NCBI GenBank assembly: GCA_965649115.1
Contig: CBFGJN010000013.1
Span: forward strand, 1 to 38,509
Direction: 5' to 3'
DNA length: 38,509 nt
Origin: a candidate division WOR-3 bacterium
GTDB taxonomy: Bacteria; Hydrothermota; Hydrothermia; LBFQ01; DSFT01
The notes beneath the pieces were generated by a model that saw nothing but the letters and a program-made list of their open reading frames with translations, was not told the origin of the DNA and did no database searches. How positions within the stretch are numbered: the stretch's first letter is position 1; the number at the start of each line of letters is the position of its first letter. Position numbers and translations under genes: made by a program. Of the stretch, positions 2,920 through 34,037 are shown piece after piece.

Positions 2920-3868
2920 ATCTATTTATAAATTTTATATAACTCTTACCAAACTTTACAATATATAAACCTTTATAGTGAGAAAGGTCAAGAACTTTTC
3001 CTTTAAGGAAAATTACCTTATAAATTCTTCCATCAGGTCTATATATATAAATATAGTCCTCGATAGGTTTATCAAAATAAATAATGTTATTTATGATTTT
3101 ATATGACACTTGCTCATAAAGAGGAACATTAAATTGTTGAAGTGTTTTAGTATAAACATTAGTTAAACTTGATGGATAAGGACCAAAATTATGAATATAG
3201 AAAACCACATAACTCGTATCAAGTTTTATCAACCAAAAACCCTTGTTTTCACGGAATCTAAATTTATATCTATCATAAGCTAAAATTGAATCAACTTGAA
3301 TACCAGAAATCGTAGATGTTGTTTTTACTTTATATCTTATTTCAACTCTACTATAAACTGTATCAGCATTTTTTGATATTAAATTTCCCGGTGATGACCT
3401 ATACCAAACAGTATCAGGAATTTGGTCATCATCAACACTCGCTATAGGATAAGGATTATTTAATTTTACTATACAGGTGTCTATACCTTGCCAAGTATTT
3501 TGAAGTATCTTATAAACTATTATTCCTCCATAATCAGCAGAAGAATCCTTTCTTACATACTGGAATGTAGTATCGTATCTACCATTTGGAAAGCTATCTG
3601 AAACAATTTTTTCAACTCTAAATGCTACATTTGGAGTATCACAATAAGGTGTTATTCCGGGTGCTACTGAAAATATACTATCTCTTGAAGTCCCGTTCCC
3701 ATAAGCTACCCCTGTAAGCTGATAGAAGTACCAATTTCCAACAACTCCACCCAGATACTCAGGACCTATGAGCATAATTGAAGGAGTTTGAGCCTTTTGA
3801 AGATATATCTTTGTAGGTAAATTTCCCCACCCTCTTTCAAACACCAAAGAAATTAACAACTCAACCAT
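2918..3868 (-). CDS. Exported hypothetical protein with T9SS-like C-terminal domain
   Basis: Short hydrophobic N-terminus MVELLISLV; C-terminus IYRPDGR...KGLYIVK...IKFINR. Confidence 0.7.
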   Translation of the reverse strand: MVELLISLVFERGWGNLPTKIYLQKAQTPSIMLIGPEYLGGVVGNWYFYQLTGVAYGNGTSRDSIFSVAPGITPYCDTPNVAFRVEKIVSDSFPNGRYDTTFQYVRKDSSADYGGIIVYKILQNTWQGIDTCIVKLNNPYPIASVDDDQIPDTVWYRSSPGNLISKNADTVYSRVEIRYKVKTTSTISGIQVDSILAYDRYKFRFRENKGFWLIKLDTSYVVFYIHNFGPYPSSLTNVYTKTLQQFNVPLYEQVSYKIINNIIYFDKPIEDYIYIYRPDGRIYKVIFLKGKVLDLSHYKGLYIVKFGKSYIKFINR

Positions 3869-3893
3869 AATAAAATTTTAAAGTATAAAAAGT

Positions 3894-4102: not shown

Positions 4103-4912
4103 ATGCTTAGTTTAACCTTTTTAATTTCCAATTGTGGGAATGAGGTGGGAATACCACCTCAAAAGACACTAATAAAATTATCAGGAGCAAGTGTAATTCA
4201 ACTACAATATCCTCTTGGGAATGAAAATGTCCTTAATGATGGTTTTGAAATATCAAATTCTAATACTTACTGCATAAATGCTTATTATGATGAAATAACT
4301 ACGGATTTCTATTCCTATAAGACCACTTATCAAACACAAGACAATAAAATACAACTAAATTTTGATATTTTATATTATAAGCCTTATGGTATTCTAAATG
4401 TAAAATTGGTAATAAAAAATCTGACGAATGAAAACTTAAATATCACTTTCAAGAAGTTTTATGAGGGACTAAGCACACCTCTTATTGACGAAAATAATCA
4501 GATATGCTATATTCCAAATAATAACTATCTTACTGCTATTATTCCGGTTTATCCTAATGCTCAAATAAGCTCATCTTCCAAAACATGTCTCTTAACCTAC
4601 AATTTAAATTTAGGACCATATCTAATATCTGAAATTTATTACGGTTATATTGTGGGAAATGACTTTAATGAACTTCTAAACTCAAAAGCAATATGTACTG
4701 GATGTAGAAGTGTTTTAGCTTCTTATGAGAAAAAGCAAGTTTTTTATGAAATAAAAGGAGGAACAATAGTTTTGAGAGGTGAAGGAATTTTTAGAATTTA
4801 CAAGGTAGATGGCAGTATCGTTTATATTGGAAAGGCAAAATCCTTAAAGCTGAAAAGTGGAGTATATTTTATAAACTACAATAATTTTACAAAAAAGGAG
4901 GTTATAAGATGA
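4103..4912 (+). CDS. Exported hypothetical protein with T9SS-like C-terminal domain
   Basis: N-terminus MLSLTFLISN; C-terminus IYKVDGS...LKSGVYFI...KKEVIR; TAAAAT 6 nt upstream. Confidence 0.7.
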   Translation: MLSLTFLISNCGNEVGIPPQKTLIKLSGASVIQLQYPLGNENVLNDGFEISNSNTYCINAYYDEITTDFYSYKTTYQTQDNKIQLNFDILYYKPYGILNVKLVIKNLTNENLNITFKKFYEGLSTPLIDENNQICYIPNNNYLTAIIPVYPNAQISSSSKTCLLTYNLNLGPYLISEIYYGYIVGNDFNELLNSKAICTGCRSVLASYEKKQVFYEIKGGTIVLRGEGIFRIYKVDGSIVYIGKAKSLKLKSGVYFINYNNFTKKEVIR

Positions 4913-7874: not shown

Positions 7875-7908
7875 AAACAGACCAATAATTATCCCTTAAA
7901 ATTTTCAA

Positions 7909-16382: not shown

Positions 16383-16620
16383 TTCCTATATTAACGTCCC
16401 CTTCAATAACCCCCTAATCTGAAATCAAAATTTAAACAAGAAAAAATCATAACCTTTTGTTTAAAAAATTGAAAAATTTTGAATACAGATGGCAAAAAAT
16501 TTTTTATGATATTAGAATAGTAGATTTTATTATACTTCCAGAGACTTGAAAATTCACTCCTTTTTAGAATAAAATTTTCGCTATGACAAAAATAACCTTT
16601 TATAAAAGGGGGGAAAGAGT

Positions 16621-18333
16621 ATGATGTGGTTAATTATAAGTCAGATGGGATTTTATAGCCCATCAAGTCAAGAATGGAACCAATTTGGCCATGACTATAA
16701 AAAGACAAGAAGAGCACCACTCAAATGTACAGCACCTGCCAGTGTAAATAGAATTTGGACAAGTGAAGATAGTCCTGGAAATTTCTTTTCTAGTGGTAGT
16801 GCCGTATGGAATATTGTATATGATGGTAATCTAAATGGAGATAACGAAGTTATGGGAGGGGGAACAGAAACTGGCTTCTTTTCAGATAATCTACTTTTAA
16901 GGCTACATCCATATTCAAATAGTTCAAATATCTTTGAGATAAGTGGTTTTGCTGACGATGGAAATTATATAGGACTTTATACTGCTGGGAAGGTTGGAAG
17001 TGAAAGAAGGGTTCTATTTACTTATGATTATGATAATTCTGGTTGGTTTAATGATGATTATGGTGATAAAGTTAGGGTTATAAATGGATGGACAGGTGCA
17101 ACAATCTGGGATTGGGAAGCTTGTCATAATGATTATTGTTTAAGAGGTCATCCTACTATTATAGATGTTAATGAAGATGGCTGTCCAGAGGTAATGTTTG
17201 GTTATTATAATAATATCCTATCTAAAAATCTCTGTGATTTTTCAAATGTTTTTAATACAAATGTAGGAGGATTATGTGCATCAACAATAGCTGTTGGTAA
17301 GTTCAATAGTCAGTGGGGTGCAGTTGTTTTATCTTGTGATGGTAGAATTAGAATTTTAAATCCTTCTTCTAATGGTTCAATTATTTCAACATCACCTTAT
17401 TATGGTTCTTTCAAAAGTGGTCCTCTTGTTTCTGACTTAGATAATGATAATAATGATGAAATTGTCTTTTCTACTTCAAGTGGAACTGTTGATGGACCTT
17501 ATTTTACATGCGATGATAATTTGTGTTCTCCATATTCGTGCTGTGAGGTTTGCTATTATAATAAAACTTTTTCAATTAAGGCTGTAAAGCCTCTTAGCTG
17601 GACAAACTTATGGTCAAAAGATCAAACTATTAGTGGTACTTATCCTGCACAAGACGATGGATGGGGGAACTACTATTGCCCTGATATTGGTGGTGGTGTT
17701 AGTGAATTTGCTATCGGTAGGATACTACCTAATAATCAACTTGGAATTGCTTATCTTCAAAACGGTCAATTAACAGTTATTAGAGCAGATAATGGTAATA
17801 CAGTGGCTTCTGGAATTGGAGGTTATGCTTTAAATCCAAGTGTTGCTGATTTGAACGGTGATGGTATAGAAGGTGTTATTGTTTCAGACGCTTGTGGAAA
17901 TCCAAAAGAGCATTCTTATGTAAATGGCTGGACAAGCCCTGTATGGTCTGCTGCTGGATGTGCAGATGAACCACCAATAACATCTGACTTAATTGTAGCA
18001 AAGGCATGGATGAATTATAACTTAAATCCACCACAAGGACAACTTATAATAGTTGAAGGTGATGCGTCTTGCTTTACAAATACTTGGTTATGTCAATCTG
18101 CTGAACAATTAACACCAACAGAAACATGGGAAAGCTTAAATAAACCAAAAATTTATTATGCTAATGGATACCTAAATATTGAAAACTACAAAGGAGATAT
18201 TGAAATTTACAAAATAGACGGTTCAAGAATAATGAAAAACTATGTTGATAACTCAGCCAAAATTAAAATTTCCACAAAGGGCATTTATATTATAAAGGCT
18301 AATAATGAAACTCATAAAATTATTGTAAATTAG
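16621..18333 (+). CDS. Cys-rich FG-GAP/VCBS-repeat exported protein with T9SS-like C-terminal domain
   Basis: DVNEDGCPEV, DLDNDNNDEIV, DLNGDGIE Ca-binding repeats; C-terminal IYKIDGS...KGIYIIK...HKIIVN. Confidence 0.78.
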   Translation: MMWLIISQMGFYSPSSQEWNQFGHDYKKTRRAPLKCTAPASVNRIWTSEDSPGNFFSSGSAVWNIVYDGNLNGDNEVMGGGTETGFFSDNLLLRLHPYSNSSNIFEISGFADDGNYIGLYTAGKVGSERRVLFTYDYDNSGWFNDDYGDKVRVINGWTGATIWDWEACHNDYCLRGHPTIIDVNEDGCPEVMFGYYNNILSKNLCDFSNVFNTNVGGLCASTIAVGKFNSQWGAVVLSCDGRIRILNPSSNGSIISTSPYYGSFKSGPLVSDLDNDNNDEIVFSTSSGTVDGPYFTCDDNLCSPYSCCEVCYYNKTFSIKAVKPLSWTNLWSKDQTISGTYPAQDDGWGNYYCPDIGGGVSEFAIGRILPNNQLGIAYLQNGQLTVIRADNGNTVASGIGGYALNPSVADLNGDGIEGVIVSDACGNPKEHSYVNGWTSPVWSAAGCADEPPITSDLIVAKAWMNYNLNPPQGQLIIVEGDASCFTNTWLCQSAEQLTPTETWESLNKPKIYYANGYLNIENYKGDIEIYKIDGSRIMKNYVDNSAKIKISTKGIYIIKANNETHKIIVN

Positions 18334-18343
18334 GAGGTGTGCT

Positions 18344-18871
18344 ATGATTTTGTTAGTTTTGAATTTAACGATTGATGATGTGATAAACAGGTACAATAAT
18401 TTACAATTTGTAAAAGCAAATGTAATTTTCTATTATAAGCTTGGTATAGTGGGAAATTCCGAATATGAAAGAGCTTATTATAGTAGTTTAAATAAGGATA
18501 TATGGAAAGGTGAAATGATTTATCAAGATAACGCTTTTAATTATAAATTTATAACAAAAAAAGGCAAAGAAATTGAATTATATTTATCTGGCAATAATGA
18601 AAATGATTACACATTTGAATTTAAGTATCAAGGCAAGGTACAAGCAGTAAATGCGCTTGATTGGGCGTACTTTATGGTTTATAAAATGCCAAGAATTCTA
18701 AAAGAGCATAATTATGAAGTTTCTCAAAATGGAAACTGGTTTATATTTAAAAAAGGTATAAGAGAGTTAAGAATGCTAATAGATAACAATTATAGAATTT
18801 TGAAAGTTGAGTATTATAAAAGGGGAGCTATAAAGGGAATTTTAGAGTTTTCAGATATTCAAATTGAATAA
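18344..18871 (+). CDS. Exported protein, possibly LolA-like fold
   Basis: SD GGAGGT; short hydrophobic N-terminus; C-terminal LID...ILKVEYY...ILEFSDIQ pattern. Confidence 0.5.
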   Translation: MILLVLNLTIDDVINRYNNLQFVKANVIFYYKLGIVGNSEYERAYYSSLNKDIWKGEMIYQDNAFNYKFITKKGKEIELYLSGNNENDYTFEFKYQGKVQAVNALDWAYFMVYKMPRILKEHNYEVSQNGNWFIFKKGIRELRMLIDNNYRILKVEYYKRGAIKGILEFSDIQIE

Positions 18872-23109: not shown

Positions 23110-23172
23110 ACTGAAATATAGGCATTTATAATCCAAAAACTTATTTATAGAACGGGTGGGAAATAAAGACTA
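23110..23172 (+). repeat. Highly degenerate intergenic element remnant
   Basis: CTGAAATATAGGCATTTATAA...CTTATTTATAGAACGGGTGGGAAATAAAG aligns with 35332-35390. Confidence 0.55.
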
Positions 23173-23197
23173 ATTTTAATCCTTTAAAATTTAAAAT

Positions 23198-27207: not shown

Positions 27208-29534
27208 TTTACTATCTTATCTGTTAATTTTAATTTATTTTCTTCGTAAATACTTATTATATAAGCACCTTTTGAAAAGTTTGAAATATCAATTTTTGAA
27301 ATTCCAGCAGGAATAAATTGCTCTAATACTTTATATCCTGAACTATTATAAATTCTTACAAGCATAGGTTTTTGAGCATTAAATATCAAATTATTTCCAA
27401 TTTTTTCATAAATTTTATTTTGTTTTTCATCAGATTTAACAGGCGTTACAGAACAACCAATTCCACCCGAAACAACAAGTGCATACTTTTGAGGTCCTTG
27501 TGGAACATTATAACCTATTACTTTAATTGTATAAGTTGTATCTTTTGGGGGTAATAATCTTACAATTTCCCAATTATTTGCTCTATCAGGTGTATTTACA
27601 TTCATTCTCGTTGTGTCAATATTACCAGGTGTTGTAGTTGTTGGTCTTACATTACCAAGCCAAAAATCTGAACCTTTTTCAACTCTTAAATCTAAATCAT
27701 TTACAAGACAATTTGAACTATTACAATTAGTACTTGCTGGATAATCATTCCAAACTAAAACTATTCTCGTTAGCATATTCTTACAAAGATTTATTGTATA
27801 GGTTTGAGTTTGACCTGTTGATATTCCACTTGTATTATCTACAAAATAAAGTTTTGATTTTCTAATATCACTTGAATCGGAAGGAGTGAGCCAATCATCT
27901 TCTGGCATAAAGTACATAACATTATCCAAAACAAGCCTTCCTGCCCCTTCATTACCATTAGGAGCTGGATTATTTGGAGCAGAAGGCTCATTTCCAAAAG
28001 GAACATCACCATCATGTGCTATTGGAACAGCACTTGCTAATAATGAAGCTTTTATTAAATTTGAAGAAGGATTTATTGAAGGAGCTGAATTTTTTGTTCC
28101 ATTTCCATACCAACCCTCAGCGTAGTATTGTCTCATCAAAATAGCTGAACCAGCAACAACAGGTGTTGCCATAGATGTTCCCATCCACCACCAAGCATTA
28201 GTTATCCCACAAGCTGTCCCACCCCAGGCTGAATATGTAGTATCACCCTTTGCCATTACATCTACACTAAATCTACCACTCGGATAATTACCATAAGCAC
28301 TCCAACCCATTTTAGCATCAATAGCTCTTGCCATTGCACCAACTGTTATATCATTTTTAGCAGTAGCAGGGTCACTTGCTGTTCTATTACATCCAGATTG
28401 ACAACTATCATCTCCATGATTACCAGCAGCAAATACGACTACCATATCAGGATTATTCCAAACAAATAAATCAATTGTTCTTGCATCTGTATTATAACTT
28501 GTTGGAGAGCACATTGTTGTAATAGAACCACAGATATATCCCCAACTATTTGTATGAACTCTTGCTCCCCTGTTATAAGCATCATTTAGGACAGTAGCAA
28601 ATCCAGAACCTCCTCCACCAAGTGGTGTTTGAGAAACAATTCTTGCCATAGGAGCCATTCCTCTATATGGCATAGAGGGAGCATTAGCATTTGAGCTATA
28701 ACCTACTGCTGTTCCAGCTGTATGTGTTCCATGACAACCTGTTCCGGGATTAGTATTACAATTAGTTCCAGCAGGAAGTGAAGCAACTCCACAACCACCT
28801 GCATTATAATTACATAAATCTACAATTTTATTTTGACCACCAACTGTTCCACTAAAAAAGCAATGGTTTCTATCAAGACCATCATCATTATGTCCTAAAA
28901 TTTCACCTTCACCATGTATTCCTTTTTTCCAAACAATTGTATCATTAGAATTTGTAGAATTTTGAACATCTAAAAATAATCCTGATTGATGTAAAACCTC
29001 ATCTCTATTATTCCAGTTTATAATAGGGTATTGAAACTCAACGAATTTTACACCTTCAAGATTAATTATTTCACTTATTTCATCTAAGGTCAAATAAGTT
29101 TGAATGTAATTTACAAATTTATCTATATAGTCAATTTTAGTATCTCTTTTTTTCAAGAAATTTAAAATTTCCGCTGTATCTTCATAATCGTAAAATAGAA
29201 TCCTAACCTTATATTTATCATTTTCCTTTACATAGCAACTATTTAGCTTTTCTTTATAATCCAAAGGAAGTTTGTATTCAGGCAAAATAGGATATATTGA
29301 TTTTACAAAATCAAATTTTGAAATTTTAGAAAGTTGCTTATCATTCGCCTTTATTATAAAAGCATTCTGGTATAAGTAATCGTAAAGCTTTATACCTTCT
29401 CTTAATAGGGTTGTTTTATAGTTGTCAAGAATCGGTCCTCTCATTTCAACAATATGATACTTCCCGCTTCCTATGGTGCTTATCTTTGCTTCATGACCAT
29501 TTATGTAAACGGCTGATAAAATGGAAATTAGCAT
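27204..29534 (-). CDS. S8 subtilisin-family serine protease (KP-43-like) with T9SS-like C-terminal domain
   Basis: NDDG, HGTHTAG, AAGN, GTSMATP; LVWND.P...LVNDLDL domain; C-terminal IYNSSG...SKGAYII...KIVK. ATG 29534 follows GGTGGAG. Confidence 0.88.
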   Translation of the reverse strand: MLISILSAVYINGHEAKISTIGSGKYHIVEMRGPILDNYKTTLLREGIKLYDYLYQNAFIIKANDKQLSKISKFDFVKSIYPILPEYKLPLDYKEKLNSCYVKENDKYKVRILFYDYEDTAEILNFLKKRDTKIDYIDKFVNYIQTYLTLDEISEIINLEGVKFVEFQYPIINWNNRDEVLHQSGLFLDVQNSTNSNDTIVWKKGIHGEGEILGHNDDGLDRNHCFFSGTVGGQNKIVDLCNYNAGGCGVASLPAGTNCNTNPGTGCHGTHTAGTAVGYSSNANAPSMPYRGMAPMARIVSQTPLGGGGSGFATVLNDAYNRGARVHTNSWGYICGSITTMCSPTSYNTDARTIDLFVWNNPDMVVVFAAGNHGDDSCQSGCNRTASDPATAKNDITVGAMARAIDAKMGWSAYGNYPSGRFSVDVMAKGDTTYSAWGGTACGITNAWWWMGTSMATPVVAGSAILMRQYYAEGWYGNGTKNSAPSINPSSNLIKASLLASAVPIAHDGDVPFGNEPSAPNNPAPNGNEGAGRLVLDNVMYFMPEDDWLTPSDSSDIRKSKLYFVDNTSGISTGQTQTYTINLCKNMLTRIVLVWNDYPASTNCNSSNCLVNDLDLRVEKGSDFWLGNVRPTTTTPGNIDTTRMNVNTPDRANNWEIVRLLPPKDTTYTIKVIGYNVPQGPQKYALVVSGGIGCSVTPVKSDEKQNKIYEKIGNNLIFNAQKPMLVRIYNSSGYKVLEQFIPAGISKIDISNFSKGAYIISIYEENKLKLTDKIVK

Positions 29535-29593: not shown

Positions 29594-29665
29594 TGCGGGG
29601 TCGTCTAATAGGTAGGACGGCAGACTCTGGATCTGCTTGTGGGGGTTCGAGTCCCTCCCCCGCAG
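29594..29665 (+). tRNA. tRNA-Gln (anticodon CTG), CCA not encoded
   Basis: Acceptor TGCGGGG/CCCCGCA, D stem GTCT/GGAC, anticodon stem GCAGA/TCTGC with loop CT-CTG-GA, T loop TTCGAGT. Confidence 0.96.
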
Positions 29666-29674
29666 CTTTTATAA

Positions 29675-30046
29675 ATGGTTTTTTTAATATCACTTCAAGT
29701 TTTTAATGATAGTATAAAAAGTAACAATCCTCAATATGATAAAATTATGAATGAAATATATTTTTCAAGTTCAAAAAGTTATAGAATTGATGAAGATAGT
29801 CTAGAAAAAATAAAGTTAGGAGCAATTGTAAATGGCTATAAATTTAAAAGTTATAAATTTGAAAGCATAGTAGAAACATTTAAAAGTTCAACAATTGATG
29901 GAAGGATAACTATTGAACAATCTGACCCCAAAGATGTTGAAATTTATGAATTCTATAAAGATAATAAATTATTGTTTTACATTGTAAAAGAAATTTACAT
30001 TGGACTTAATAAAAGAGTTTATGTAGTTATTTATAAATCAGAATAA
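29675..30046 (+). CDS. Hypothetical exported protein
   Basis: 123-aa ORF with N-terminus MVFLISLQ, 9 nt after the tRNA. Confidence 0.55.
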   Translation: MVFLISLQVFNDSIKSNNPQYDKIMNEIYFSSSKSYRIDEDSLEKIKLGAIVNGYKFKSYKFESIVETFKSSTIDGRITIEQSDPKDVEIYEFYKDNKLLFYIVKEIYIGLNKRVYVVIYKSE

Positions 30047-32212: not shown

Positions 32213-33296
32213 TATCTAAAAAATAAAAATTATTTTCATTATCCTTAAATTTAATTCTTACAAAAATGGGTTTATTTTTAGGAATTTTCTTTAAAAATTT
32301 GTATTCAAATGGTATTTGAGTACTCTGACCTATAGAATAACTCCCTGCGATATTAAATTTTATTTCTGATGGAGCAAAAACACTATCTATTGTTAAATTT
32401 ATTGGTTTATTTGAAACGTTTTCAAGTTTAATAAAACCTTTCTTCTTTTTAATTTCAAATCCTAAAAATCTAATTGGAACTTCAAAGGATAATGAATCAA
32501 TTATGTTTGATGTTATTGTTTTTGAACCTAAAACCGCCTTGTACTCACCTTCAATTTTCGCTTTATATGTTCCAGCTTCATTCAAAAGAAGAACAGCACA
32601 TGAATAATCTCCATAATTCCTTAAACTTACATTTATTGGTGTTCCTTTTGGATCAGTTAAATTTATGATATAATTTTCAGAAGTTGTCGTAGGTAATTTA
32701 TTGTATATTTGAAGACAAAGATAGGCGGGTTGATTTGAAAATCCATAATTTTTAACATAAAATTTATATATTGGTTTATAAACAACATTTAAAGGTCTAT
32801 AAATTCTAATTTCAAGAAGCTGTTTTGGATGATTTATTACAAGAGCTAATTTGTAATTTCCTACTTCATCAATTGGTTCTAAATTTCTACCAAGGATATT
32901 TATATTATATGGGTCTTGTTGTAATAGAAACGCTTCACTTTCTCCTTGTTCAGAAATAATATAAACTCTTGGAGCTTCAAATTCACTAATAGGAAATCCA
33001 AGAAAATCAAAAGAGACAGTTAATGTTTCACCTATGGGAATTTCTAAGTTTTTAGGATTTATAAATTTTGGAAGTGGTATAATTTTTTCTTTTTTTGTTT
33101 TTTTGTCGTATATCAAAATATCAAGATTACTTAAATCATTCAGCGTAGTATCAATTCTATAATAGGTATTTCTATCAATTTTTGCTTTTGATATTCCAGT
33201 TGGTGTTCTTAGATAGACTTCCTTACTCTTGTCAAAAGAAGATATAACCTGAACATTATAAAAAATTTCAGTTTGTGATAAAATTAGCATTATCAT
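32193..33296 (-). CDS. Hypothetical exported beta-rich protein
   Basis: SD GGAGG; N-terminus MIMLILSQ; Ig-like motifs (DPKG, EAGTYKA). Confidence 0.6.
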   Translation of the reverse strand: MIMLILSQTEIFYNVQVISSFDKSKEVYLRTPTGISKAKIDRNTYYRIDTTLNDLSNLDILIYDKKTKKEKIIPLPKFINPKNLEIPIGETLTVSFDFLGFPISEFEAPRVYIISEQGESEAFLLQQDPYNINILGRNLEPIDEVGNYKLALVINHPKQLLEIRIYRPLNVVYKPIYKFYVKNYGFSNQPAYLCLQIYNKLPTTTSENYIINLTDPKGTPINVSLRNYGDYSCAVLLLNEAGTYKAKIEGEYKAVLGSKTITSNIIDSLSFEVPIRFLGFEIKKKKGFIKLENVSNKPINLTIDSVFAPSEIKFNIAGSYSIGQSTQIPFEYKFLKKIPKNKPIFVRIKFKDNENNFYFLDIKILIS

Positions 33297-33559: not shown

Positions 33560-34037
33560 TTCTTAAAATCCTTATGTGTTTAAACTCAGCATCACTTTCA
33601 AAACCAATGCCCCAAAGTTCTCTCTTATTTTTTGAATCATATATATATACACTATCATCAGTGTAGATTCTTCTTATTATGTCATTCCAATACAATTTGT
33701 TAGTTTTCAGAAATGAGCTATCCTTTGACTTAAAAATAACATTCCCATAAGCTTTCATATTTCTGCTGTTCTTTTCCATAATACCTGAATCGCCTATTAA
33801 AACTCCACTTATTTGATTATTGTTGTCATAAAATTTTAGACTAAATTTAAGCACAATATAATAACCATTTAGTTCAATTATACTATCCGCTAAAATTTCC
33901 CAATTTTTTTTATCAAATTCATATTCAATAATTTTACCATTACTAACTTTTTGAAAATAATTAGGTATTTGATAATTTTTCACTTCTTCCAATTTTTTTG
34001 AGCAGGAAAATAAAATAACAATTAGAAGAAATCTCAT
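33522..34037 (-). CDS. lptC: LPS export periplasmic protein LptC
   Basis: Lipobox LFSC; GNV....L.T..LYW...IYTD..V.I....GIGFESD beta-jellyroll pattern. Likely start ATG 34037. Confidence 0.78.
   Translation of the reverse strand: MRFLLIVILFSCSKKLEEVKNYQIPNYFQKVSNGKIIEYEFDKKNWEILADSIIELNGYYIVLKFSLKFYDNNNQISGVLIGDSGIMEKNSRNMKAYGNVIFKSKDSSFLKTNKLYWNDIIRRIYTDDSVYIYDSKNKRELWGIGFESDAEFKHIRILRNVRGKGEGNLTK

Follow-up and report, generated by a model that had tools for sequence, protein, structure and literature searches.

The window analysed here is one whole contig of 38.5 kb (C13) from the genome of a candidate division WOR-3 bacterium (G000; 1.85 Mb in 99 contigs, 94.5% complete, ~28% G+C). A first-pass annotation had pointed to seven proteins in it with short uncharged N-termini, such as MMWLIISQ at position 16621, and all seven are present in the sequence at the places that it gave. 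We argue, from comparisons of sequences, that these stubs are probably real Sec-type signal peptides (of the signal peptidase I type) that have been drastically shortened, through a lineage-specific collapse of the signal. In SurA, BamA and the family of the 16621 protein, canonical basic signals of 17-21 residues in sister lineages stand against uncharged ones of 7-9 residues in the family of G000 (f1) and in its sister family of the same order (f2). Below, g1 denotes the genus of G000, and f3-f10 other families of the class. The comparative evidence supports what the annotation had proposed, that is, a minimal lineage-specific signal peptide in a cell with altered targeting machinery.

A short signal of this kind would consist of Met and five to seven Leu, Ile or Phe residues, followed usually by a small or polar residue and often with Gln at position 8 or 9. 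Such signals would descend from ordinary ones of about 20 residues with a basic start, and in the order of f1 and f2 the basic n-region and the greater part of the h-region would have disappeared. The seven starts of the window, with the elements next to them, are as follows:

16621..16644, + strand: MMWLIISQ, 8-residue uncharged N-terminus of a 570-aa FG-GAP protein with a weak type IX secretion system (T9SS) C-terminal domain (CTD)
16603..16619, + strand: in-frame TAA (16603-16605), then the Shine-Dalgarno (SD)-like AAGGGGGGAAAGAG directly before the ATG at 16621; upstream extension blocked
3845..3868, - strand: MVELLISL, start of a 316-aa protein with no Pfam family; leaderless-type ATG behind a promoter motif, stop 3 codons upstream
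4103..4135, + strand: MLSLTFLISNC, 11-residue uncharged lipoprotein-like signal of a 269-aa protein that matches a genome-specific CTD profile (E 5.6e-5)
18344..18367, + strand: MILLVLNL, start of a 175-aa protein with no Pfam family; AGGAGG 6 nt upstream, stop 5 codons upstream
29511..29534, - strand: MLISILSA, start of a subtilase (Peptidase_S8) with a T9SS CTD; preceded by GGGGGGTGGAG
29675..29698, + strand: MVFLISLQ, start of a 123-aa protein with no Pfam family; ATG 8 nt past the end of tRNA-Gln
29594..29666, + strand: tRNA-Gln(CTG), abutting the 29675 start
33273..33296, - strand: MIMLILSQ, start of a 367-aa protein with no Pfam family; AAGGAGGG directly upstream

Homology gives evidence of export only for the 16621, subtilase and 4103 proteins. 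The match to the T9SS CTD (PF18962) is over the cut-off in the subtilase (27.9 bits) and below it in the 16621 protein (17-21 bits), and the 4103 protein matches the genome-specific CTD profile only; CTD matches were absent from the 3868, 18344, 29675 and 33296 proteins. None of the seven N-termini contains an Arg, so that the twin-arginine motif of the Tat pathway is absent from all of them. In the 4103 protein, ISN-C forms an atypical lipobox; the lipoprotein signal peptidase LspA is present in the genome, and the signal is free of Lys and Arg and thus belongs to a minority among the lipoprotein-like signals of G000.

An in-frame stop lies 0-5 codons upstream of six of the seven starts and 17 codons upstream of 33296. 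Between stop and start there is no ATG, GTG or TTG, except for a TTG five codons before the subtilase start at 29534, which would add only MGGGA. At 16621 the frame reads TAA-K-G-G-K-S-MMWLIISQ, the five codons from stop to ATG being the SD-like AAGGGGGGAAAGAG itself. Strong SD-like sites also precede 18344, 29534 and 33296, and a TTTAAAATTT-like promoter motif is found ahead of 3868 and 4103. The stops, SD sites, promoters and tRNA directly upstream are as the annotation had described them, and its claim that the starts are not miscalled holds.

Further observations concern the surroundings of these starts. A 13-codon open reading frame (ORF), MTKITFYKRGERV (16583-16624, + strand), lies just behind the promoter-like AATAAAATTTTCGCT, and its TGA overlaps the ATG at 16621 (GTATGATG); possibly this is an upstream ORF, leaderless and coupled to the 16621 gene. 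The tRNA-Gln ends 8 nt before the 29675 ATG, and a short-signal CTD gene of contig C79 likewise comes directly after a tRNA-like 3' end. Some of the short starts form a sub-type with Glu as the third residue, as in MVELLISL of the window (3845-3868, - strand) and in MMELILITK and MMELILISK of contigs C28 and C3, the latter two sitting on Pfam-CTD proteins.

Signal length among homologues

The SurA comparison covered 30 loci, three of them uninformative (two g2 frames open far upstream, and one contig edge). Signal length at the others was distributed as follows:

g1, the genus of G000, 5 loci: 8-residue stubs, e.g. MIFLILSS followed by D
f2, 11 loci: 7-8 residues and then Q (MILLLLSQLDT...), with a GGAGGTGA-type SD and a stop directly upstream
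f5, 3 loci: 9-10 residues
f3, 3 loci: 11-12 residues, one K
f4, f8 and f10, 5 loci: canonical, e.g. MRRTGLLVLLLSGFLYAQ and MKKFLILFLPLVVLAQ

The SurA of G000 itself begins with MIFLILSS, followed by DSLKLLDKVIAVVNDEPI. BamA shows the same trend in length across the families and has a leaderless TTG start in g1. Elsewhere in the phylum the SurA signals are mostly canonical, and a few families have uncharged signals of 12-13 residues.

The homologues of the 16621 protein bring the two forms closest together. Short ones are MMWLIISQ followed by MGFYSPSSQEW in G000 and MMWLLISQ followed by MNFYS in G002, and canonical ones, MRWLVGSLFLLLIYDFIYAQ followed by MSKYGPSSTEW and MKWLLSLSVFLGLISQLHAQ followed by NARYGP, were found in two other species of the same genus. 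Canonical and 8-residue forms are likewise both present in f2. The Gln at +1, which is that of 16642-16644 in the window, stays aligned between the short and the canonical forms. As judged from this alignment, the stub occupies the exact slot of the canonical signal peptide, and the two forms are interchangeable within one genus. The annotation had named longer signals in orthologues as a finding that would speak against it; these exist, but as real evolutionary alternatives and not as upstream starts that had been missed. Its claim of a lineage-specific trait is borne out, with short signals in f1 and f2 and canonical basic ones in sister lineages.

A similar series was obtained for the CTD proteins of five representative genomes: G000 (f1), G009 (f2), G027 (f5), G032 (f4) and G024 (f8). 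The end of the N-terminal segment was counted as the number of residues from Met1 to the first D, E, K, R, N, Q, H or P after the first hydrophobic core. Its median was 8 in G000, 10.5 in G009, 13.5 in G027, 16.5 in G032 and 21 in G024. The CTD matches used were 13 of 14 in G009, the best 20 of 45 in G027, the best 20 of 24 in G032 and all 17 in G024, and the segment end was assessable in 12/13, 18/20, 16/20 and 12/17 of them, respectively. Relatives are not independent samples, and the series is therefore to be read as a gradient along few lineages, to which no statistical test was applied.

Short starts across the genome

Our own heuristic gene call (translation table 11) gave 1691 ORFs of at least 90 codons each, which cover 92% of the genome. 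N-termini were classified by a compositional rule, according to which residues 2-8 contain no K or R and at least five of LIVFMWY, and residues 9-20 contain at most five of LIVFMWA. The rule flags six of the seven window starts and misses the subtilase only because the gene caller took the upstream TTG; no further called gene of the window is positive. In G000, PF18962 was found at 45 places at E ≤0.01, 12 of them over the curated cut-off, and the T9SS translocon protein SprA is present (283 bits). The rule holds for 25 of the 43 Pfam-CTD ORFs and for 179 of the 1647 others (odds ratio 11.4, Fisher p 2.4e-13). When CTD proteins were defined by the genome-specific profile, which was built from the genome's own tails, the figures were 38/63 and 166/1627 (p 9e-21). 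The segment end could be assessed in 39 of 42 CTD ORFs, where it falls by residue 10 in 28, at 11-14 in three and at 15 or later in eight; K or R precedes the hydrophobic core in seven of these 39 and is lacking in 32.

The Pfam scan covered 141 of the 179 rule-positive non-CTD proteins, namely those within 40 of the 70 genome stretches. A family was found for 76 of them and none for 65. Judged by family name, 43 of the 76 belong to envelope or secreted families. These include BamA (Omp85/POTRA), LptD, OEP/TolC, TonB-dependent receptors, four OmpA-domain proteins and YfiO-type TPR proteins, besides two binding proteins, YceI, a DsbA-like thioredoxin, CcmH, a 5'-nucleotidase and PhoD, and peptidases of families S8, M16, M23 and S49. 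The remainder comprises five ambiguous TPR-only proteins, five polytopic membrane proteins and 23 proteins of cytoplasmic type. Occurrence of the same start in cytoplasmic proteins was another finding that the annotation had set against itself, and the rule does pick up these 23 of 76 family-assigned positives. A short hydrophobic start is non-diagnostic by itself, yet among the exported proteins it predominates. Roughly a dozen canonical signals are retained in G000 according to our reading of the list of N-termini, e.g. MKRLFILITFILGFFSLAYA followed by Q, and one Tat-like signal (MTRRTFLK...) occurs outside the window.

The short signal has a recognizable form. I, L or F occupy positions 2-6 and L, S or I position 7, and 37 of 204 rule-positive proteins carry Q at position 8 or 9, compared with 47 of 1300 others (p 1.3e-12). 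Counting the Met, the commonest hydrophobic run is of six residues (59/204), followed by runs of seven (28) and eight (24). A textbook Sec signal has ~18-30 residues with an h-region of ~7-15, and the run of six is therefore at or below the minimum for an h-region. The short cores are more hydrophobic per residue (2.64 vs 2.07 on the Kyte-Doolittle scale) and less so in total.

The placement of the starts was also examined in the 28 short CTD proteins of the genome, in which the nearest in-frame stop lies at a median of 4 codons upstream (range 0-18). An SD match of at least five bases precedes 13 of them, a leaderless promoter nine and a 4-base SD two; the remaining four have other contexts, one adjoining the 3' end of a tRNA. 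Occurrences of the promoter motif CTTTAAAATTT cluster 4-8 nt ahead of several hundred called starts, those of MetRS, DnaE and MutS among them. Because these three proteins have the expected N-termini, an ATG just behind the motif can be taken as a genuine leaderless start.

In the window the motif stands 4-8 nt before ATG at, for example, 23170-23197, 7880-7908 and 3869-3890 (- strand), and its placement indicates leaderless mRNAs in ~30% of the genes, housekeeping genes included. A link between short signals and leaderless translation was considered and rejected, given that promoter-type starts make up 31% of the rule-positive genes and 30% of the others, and SD-type starts 25% and 26%.

Lipoprotein signals followed another course. 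The annotation had described two short ones in the window, with Cys14 and Cys12, which is correct and typical of the genome:

153..194, + strand: MSKRFFWIFFLFGC, lipoprotein signal with Cys14, basic n-region kept
34002..34037, - strand: MRFLLIVILFSC, lipoprotein signal with Cys12 of an LptC-like protein, Arg2 kept

Among 73 lipoprotein-like N-termini of G000 the Cys lies at 11-22, with a mode at 14, and K or R is kept in 66. Since lipoprotein-like signals keep their basic residues, the collapse concerns signals of the signal peptidase I type.

Sec machinery and the signal recognition particle

The annotation had further proposed an altered system of Sec, signal recognition particle (SRP) and signal peptidase. 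Two parts of this proposal stood, as SRP was not found in the class and a residue of the SecY pore ring is changed in the short-signal families; the signal peptidase looks ordinary. G000 encodes SecY (339 bits), SecA (365 bits), one LepB (147 bits) and LspA, and local phmmer searches with E. coli queries found YidC, YidD, YajC, SecD, SecF and trigger factor; SecB was not found in G000 in the same way. The single YidC (on C24) has no C-terminal extension beyond the E. coli alignment. With one tail-less YidC and no SecB found, the usual back-ups for life without SRP are not evident.

Searches for SRP were negative throughout the class. Neither Ffh (TIGR00959) nor its M domain (PF02978) was found in G000. 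PF00448, the GTPase domain common to Ffh and FtsY, had no match at E ≤1e-10 in 41 class genomes, several of which are 99-100% complete in 3-4 contigs, and matched in 14/14 controls. E. coli Ffh and FtsY gave nothing in the six-frame ORFs of G000 by tblastn (E ≤1e-3) or phmmer (E ≤10); in the same run SecY, LepA, Era and FtsE scored 155-627 bits, and G000 is without masked N runs. FtsY from the same phylum, searched against all 64 class genomes, produced only six marginal matches of 20.5 bits at most. The small SRP RNA (RF00169) was not found in any of the 41 class genomes, but its model also misses Bacteroides controls, and of the several lines of evidence this one carries the least weight. 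Among 81 sampled genomes of the phylum, PF00448 occurred in 0/15 class genomes and in 55/66 others, usually as two matches near E 1e-70, the 11 others without it belonging to f12, f24, f25, f27 and f33. To judge from these profile and homology searches, this appears to be a class of free-living bacteria without SRP. We found no report in the literature of natural SRP loss in this lineage.

Streptococcus mutans is described in one report as surviving the loss of SRP (PMC8546722). The likeness lies in life without Ffh and FtsY (PMC8546722); the difference is that we deal here with a whole diderm class, with genomes of 1.2-2.4 Mb, full envelope machinery and no second YidC. SRP absence may be a permissive background for short signals. 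SRP loss as their simple or sufficient cause was considered and rejected, because signals are long in f4 and f8 despite the lack of SRP. Beyond the class, uncharged SurA signals of 12-13 residues occur together with SRP in f19, f23 and f30, and canonical ones without SRP in f24 and f27.

The pore ring of SecY consists of six isoleucines, as stated in one account (PMC8082313), and I187 of E. coli is named elsewhere as a member of this ring (PMC2171872). In the alignment with E. coli SecY, five of the six are unchanged; the SecY of G000 lies on C64 (L040:1291-2604). The sixth, at the I187 site, is distributed as follows:

g1: Ser, 5/5
g2: Ala, 2/2
f2: Ala, 12/12
f3: Ala, 4/4
f4-f9: Ile, 16/16
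f10: Val, 1/1

Outside the class the site is Ala in f19, which has a 13-residue uncharged SurA signal, and Ile in f23 and f30. Suppressors of the prlA type at G69, I191, I278, S282 and I408 are thought to ease opening of the channel for altered signals, according to the same source on the ring (PMC2171872); no reported prlA allele at I187 itself came to our notice. The change at this aligned site is better regarded as a lead than as proof.

An altered signal peptidase was rejected at this resolution. A single LepB occurs in 38 of 41 relatives, and families with short and with canonical signals share its SGSM...K(R) and GDNRDxSxDSRF motifs and agree at the pocket positions.

Competing readings and significance

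We infer from these comparisons how export by the stubs might proceed, including the cut by LepB and the roles of the SecY and SRP changes. Without SRP, SecA would be the likely targeting factor, and the very hydrophobic stub would engage the lateral gate of SecY. The channel may open more easily in SecY with one of its six pore-ring isoleucines replaced by Ser or Ala, and the single LepB would cut before Gln where the residue at -1 is small. The wider scenario, that the class is free of SRP and that the derived order was re-tuned to SecA-only targeting and a weakened SecY ring, so that a stub of 7-9 residues exports most of the secretome, is put forward tentatively, as a possibility that we hold to be somewhat short of even. 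If this is true, a free-living diderm bacterium would in effect have a natural export system that is 'prl-like' and free of SRP.

Several points weigh against the reading of the stubs as shortened Sec signals and against the mechanism attached to it. No Pfam family could be assigned to four of the seven window proteins (3868, 18344, 29675 and 33296). Within the class, as f4 and f8 show, and outside it as well, the presence or absence of SRP does not go along with the length of the signals. The SecY change is also present in f3, with intermediate signals, and absent from f5, with fairly short ones; moreover, the groups are told apart by no more than 13 alignment columns, and that one of the six ring sites should be found among these is statistically weak. 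The catalytic and pocket motifs of LepB are the same whether signals are short or canonical. With 6-7 residues, the hydrophobic stretch is too short to span a membrane in the hairpin geometry of the textbooks. The rule is also met by 23 cytoplasmic-type proteins (thiolase, CinA, GlyRS-alpha, Pth, OMP decarboxylase, Cas2 and others). Finally, of 58 residues that precede a first Q, 30 are S, G, A, T, N or C and the other 28 are bulky or unsuitable in another way, so that many stubs may be cut elsewhere or not at all.

This last point leads to the alternative that survives best, which we consider unlikely though worth serious attention. The stubs would start Sec translocation and stay uncleaved; too short to anchor, they would slip from the lateral gate of SecY to the periplasm with the N-terminus intact, and the conserved Gln would have some other role. 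The composition around the first Gln (n=58) is indeed divided. At -1 there are S 14, G 5, T 4, A 3, N 3 and C 1 along with bulky L 10, I 5, F 4, Y 3 and others, and at -3 L 29 and I 16. Because -1 is small in 30/58, cleavage before Q is plausible, on composition, for about half of the cases. Sites such as ...TVQ, ...VMQ and ...LVQ in SurA and BamA of f2 and a LepB without adaptation agree with uncleaved stubs, and so does the contrast with lipoproteins, whose Cys is needed at the outer leaflet and whose signals stayed at 12-17 residues with K or R (66/73), as if only signals free of the requirement to span the membrane could shrink. Uncleaved stubs are harder to reconcile with three observations: in alignments with homologues the Gln falls precisely on the +1 Gln of canonical AQ sites, S, N, G, A or T predominate at -1 both in the 16621 family and in those CTD proteins whose Q stands at 8-10, and the single LepB is conserved in 38/41 genomes.

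Much less probable is that the stubs are a by-product of composition, in which a G+C content of 28% brings many Ile, Leu and Phe codons and hence hydrophobic starts that are not signals, with export taking place through other features or not at all. The 23 cytoplasmic-type positives fit this idea, as do the 166-179 rule-positive non-CTD proteins and the 65/141 scanned ones without a family. In most of the 23, the Pfam domain starts at residue 1-5, and the hydrophobic start is therefore the first beta-strand of the domain. Composition would not account for the 11-13-fold enrichment on CTD proteins, for the excess of Q at positions 8-9 or for the positional alignment of the stub with canonical signal peptides, and no other called gene of the window is rule-positive. 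Furthermore, f2 is not AT-rich in the flanks seen and yet has the same 7-8-residue signals. The essential BamA, SurA, LptD and TolC have no other N-terminal signal; cytoplasmic homologues of BamA and SurA are not credible, which leaves the idea viable only for individual unannotated proteins.

That the starts are miscalled, with true signals upstream hidden by frameshifts, an unusual genetic code or non-canonical start codons, has almost nothing to recommend it beyond the draft state of the assembly (99 contigs) and the G-runs that precede some starts, and is largely refuted by stops at a median of 4 codons upstream, within SD sites or within the promoter motif itself, by the same SurA architecture in five genomes of the genus and 11 of f2, by housekeeping genes that begin at the expected N-termini behind the same motif, by full-length ORFs over 92% of the genome under table 11 and by the upstream frame at 16583, where MTKITFYKRGERV ending in a stop is not signal-like.

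Taken as shortened Sec signals, the stubs can be compared with known systems. Like the tripartite (n-h-c) Sec signals of E. coli OmpA and PhoA, they are N-terminal, hydrophobic and found on exported proteins, often with a small residue before the presumed cut; they are positionally homologous to such signals, and SecA, SecY and LepB are present. They differ in having 7-9 residues, no Lys/Arg n-region and a core of 5-7 residues composed almost only of L, I, F and M. The Gln directly after the signal, in canonical ...AQ as well as short ...SQ, ...NQ and ...GQ, recalls the Q-rule of Bacteroidetes, which is reported to hold for that group and not for the entire FCB group (PMC5837995, PMC10653852); here it is seen in another phylum and throughout the class (e.g. 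L025, L031, L036). A plant-type glutaminyl cyclase (PF05096) was not found in the profile search, and the mammalian-type enzyme was not searched for. The E. coli prlA (SecY) suppressors resemble the situation described here in that families whose signals are shortest have a small or polar residue at a ring site. Alleles at neighbouring ring residues are stated to allow export with defective signals (PMC2171872); in our case the state is natural and fixed instead of a laboratory suppressor, and the correlation is imperfect (f3, f5, f19). What the literature that we saw calls 'short signal peptides' are the class III (type IV prepilin-like) signals of archaea and bacteria, in which a charged leader is cut by prepilin peptidase before the hydrophobic stretch, whereas here the hydrophobic stretch is itself the uncharged leader. 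We found nothing in the literature on short Sec signals in this lineage.

Secretome prediction, annotation and secretion engineering all build on the rules for signal peptides, which ask for a basic n-region and for 7-8 or more residues in the h-region. An order that exports BamA, SurA, LptD and most of its surface proteins by means of ~8 uncharged residues would escape the predictors, and would define how little information Sec needs. The natural series from 21 to 8 residues would allow the accompanying changes of the machinery to be traced, and very short signals could be useful tags in secretion engineering. The apparent absence of SRP from a whole class contradicts the statement, made in one of the sources, that SRP is conserved in all organisms (PMC7844537), and with it the targeting of membrane proteins without SRP becomes testable in nature.

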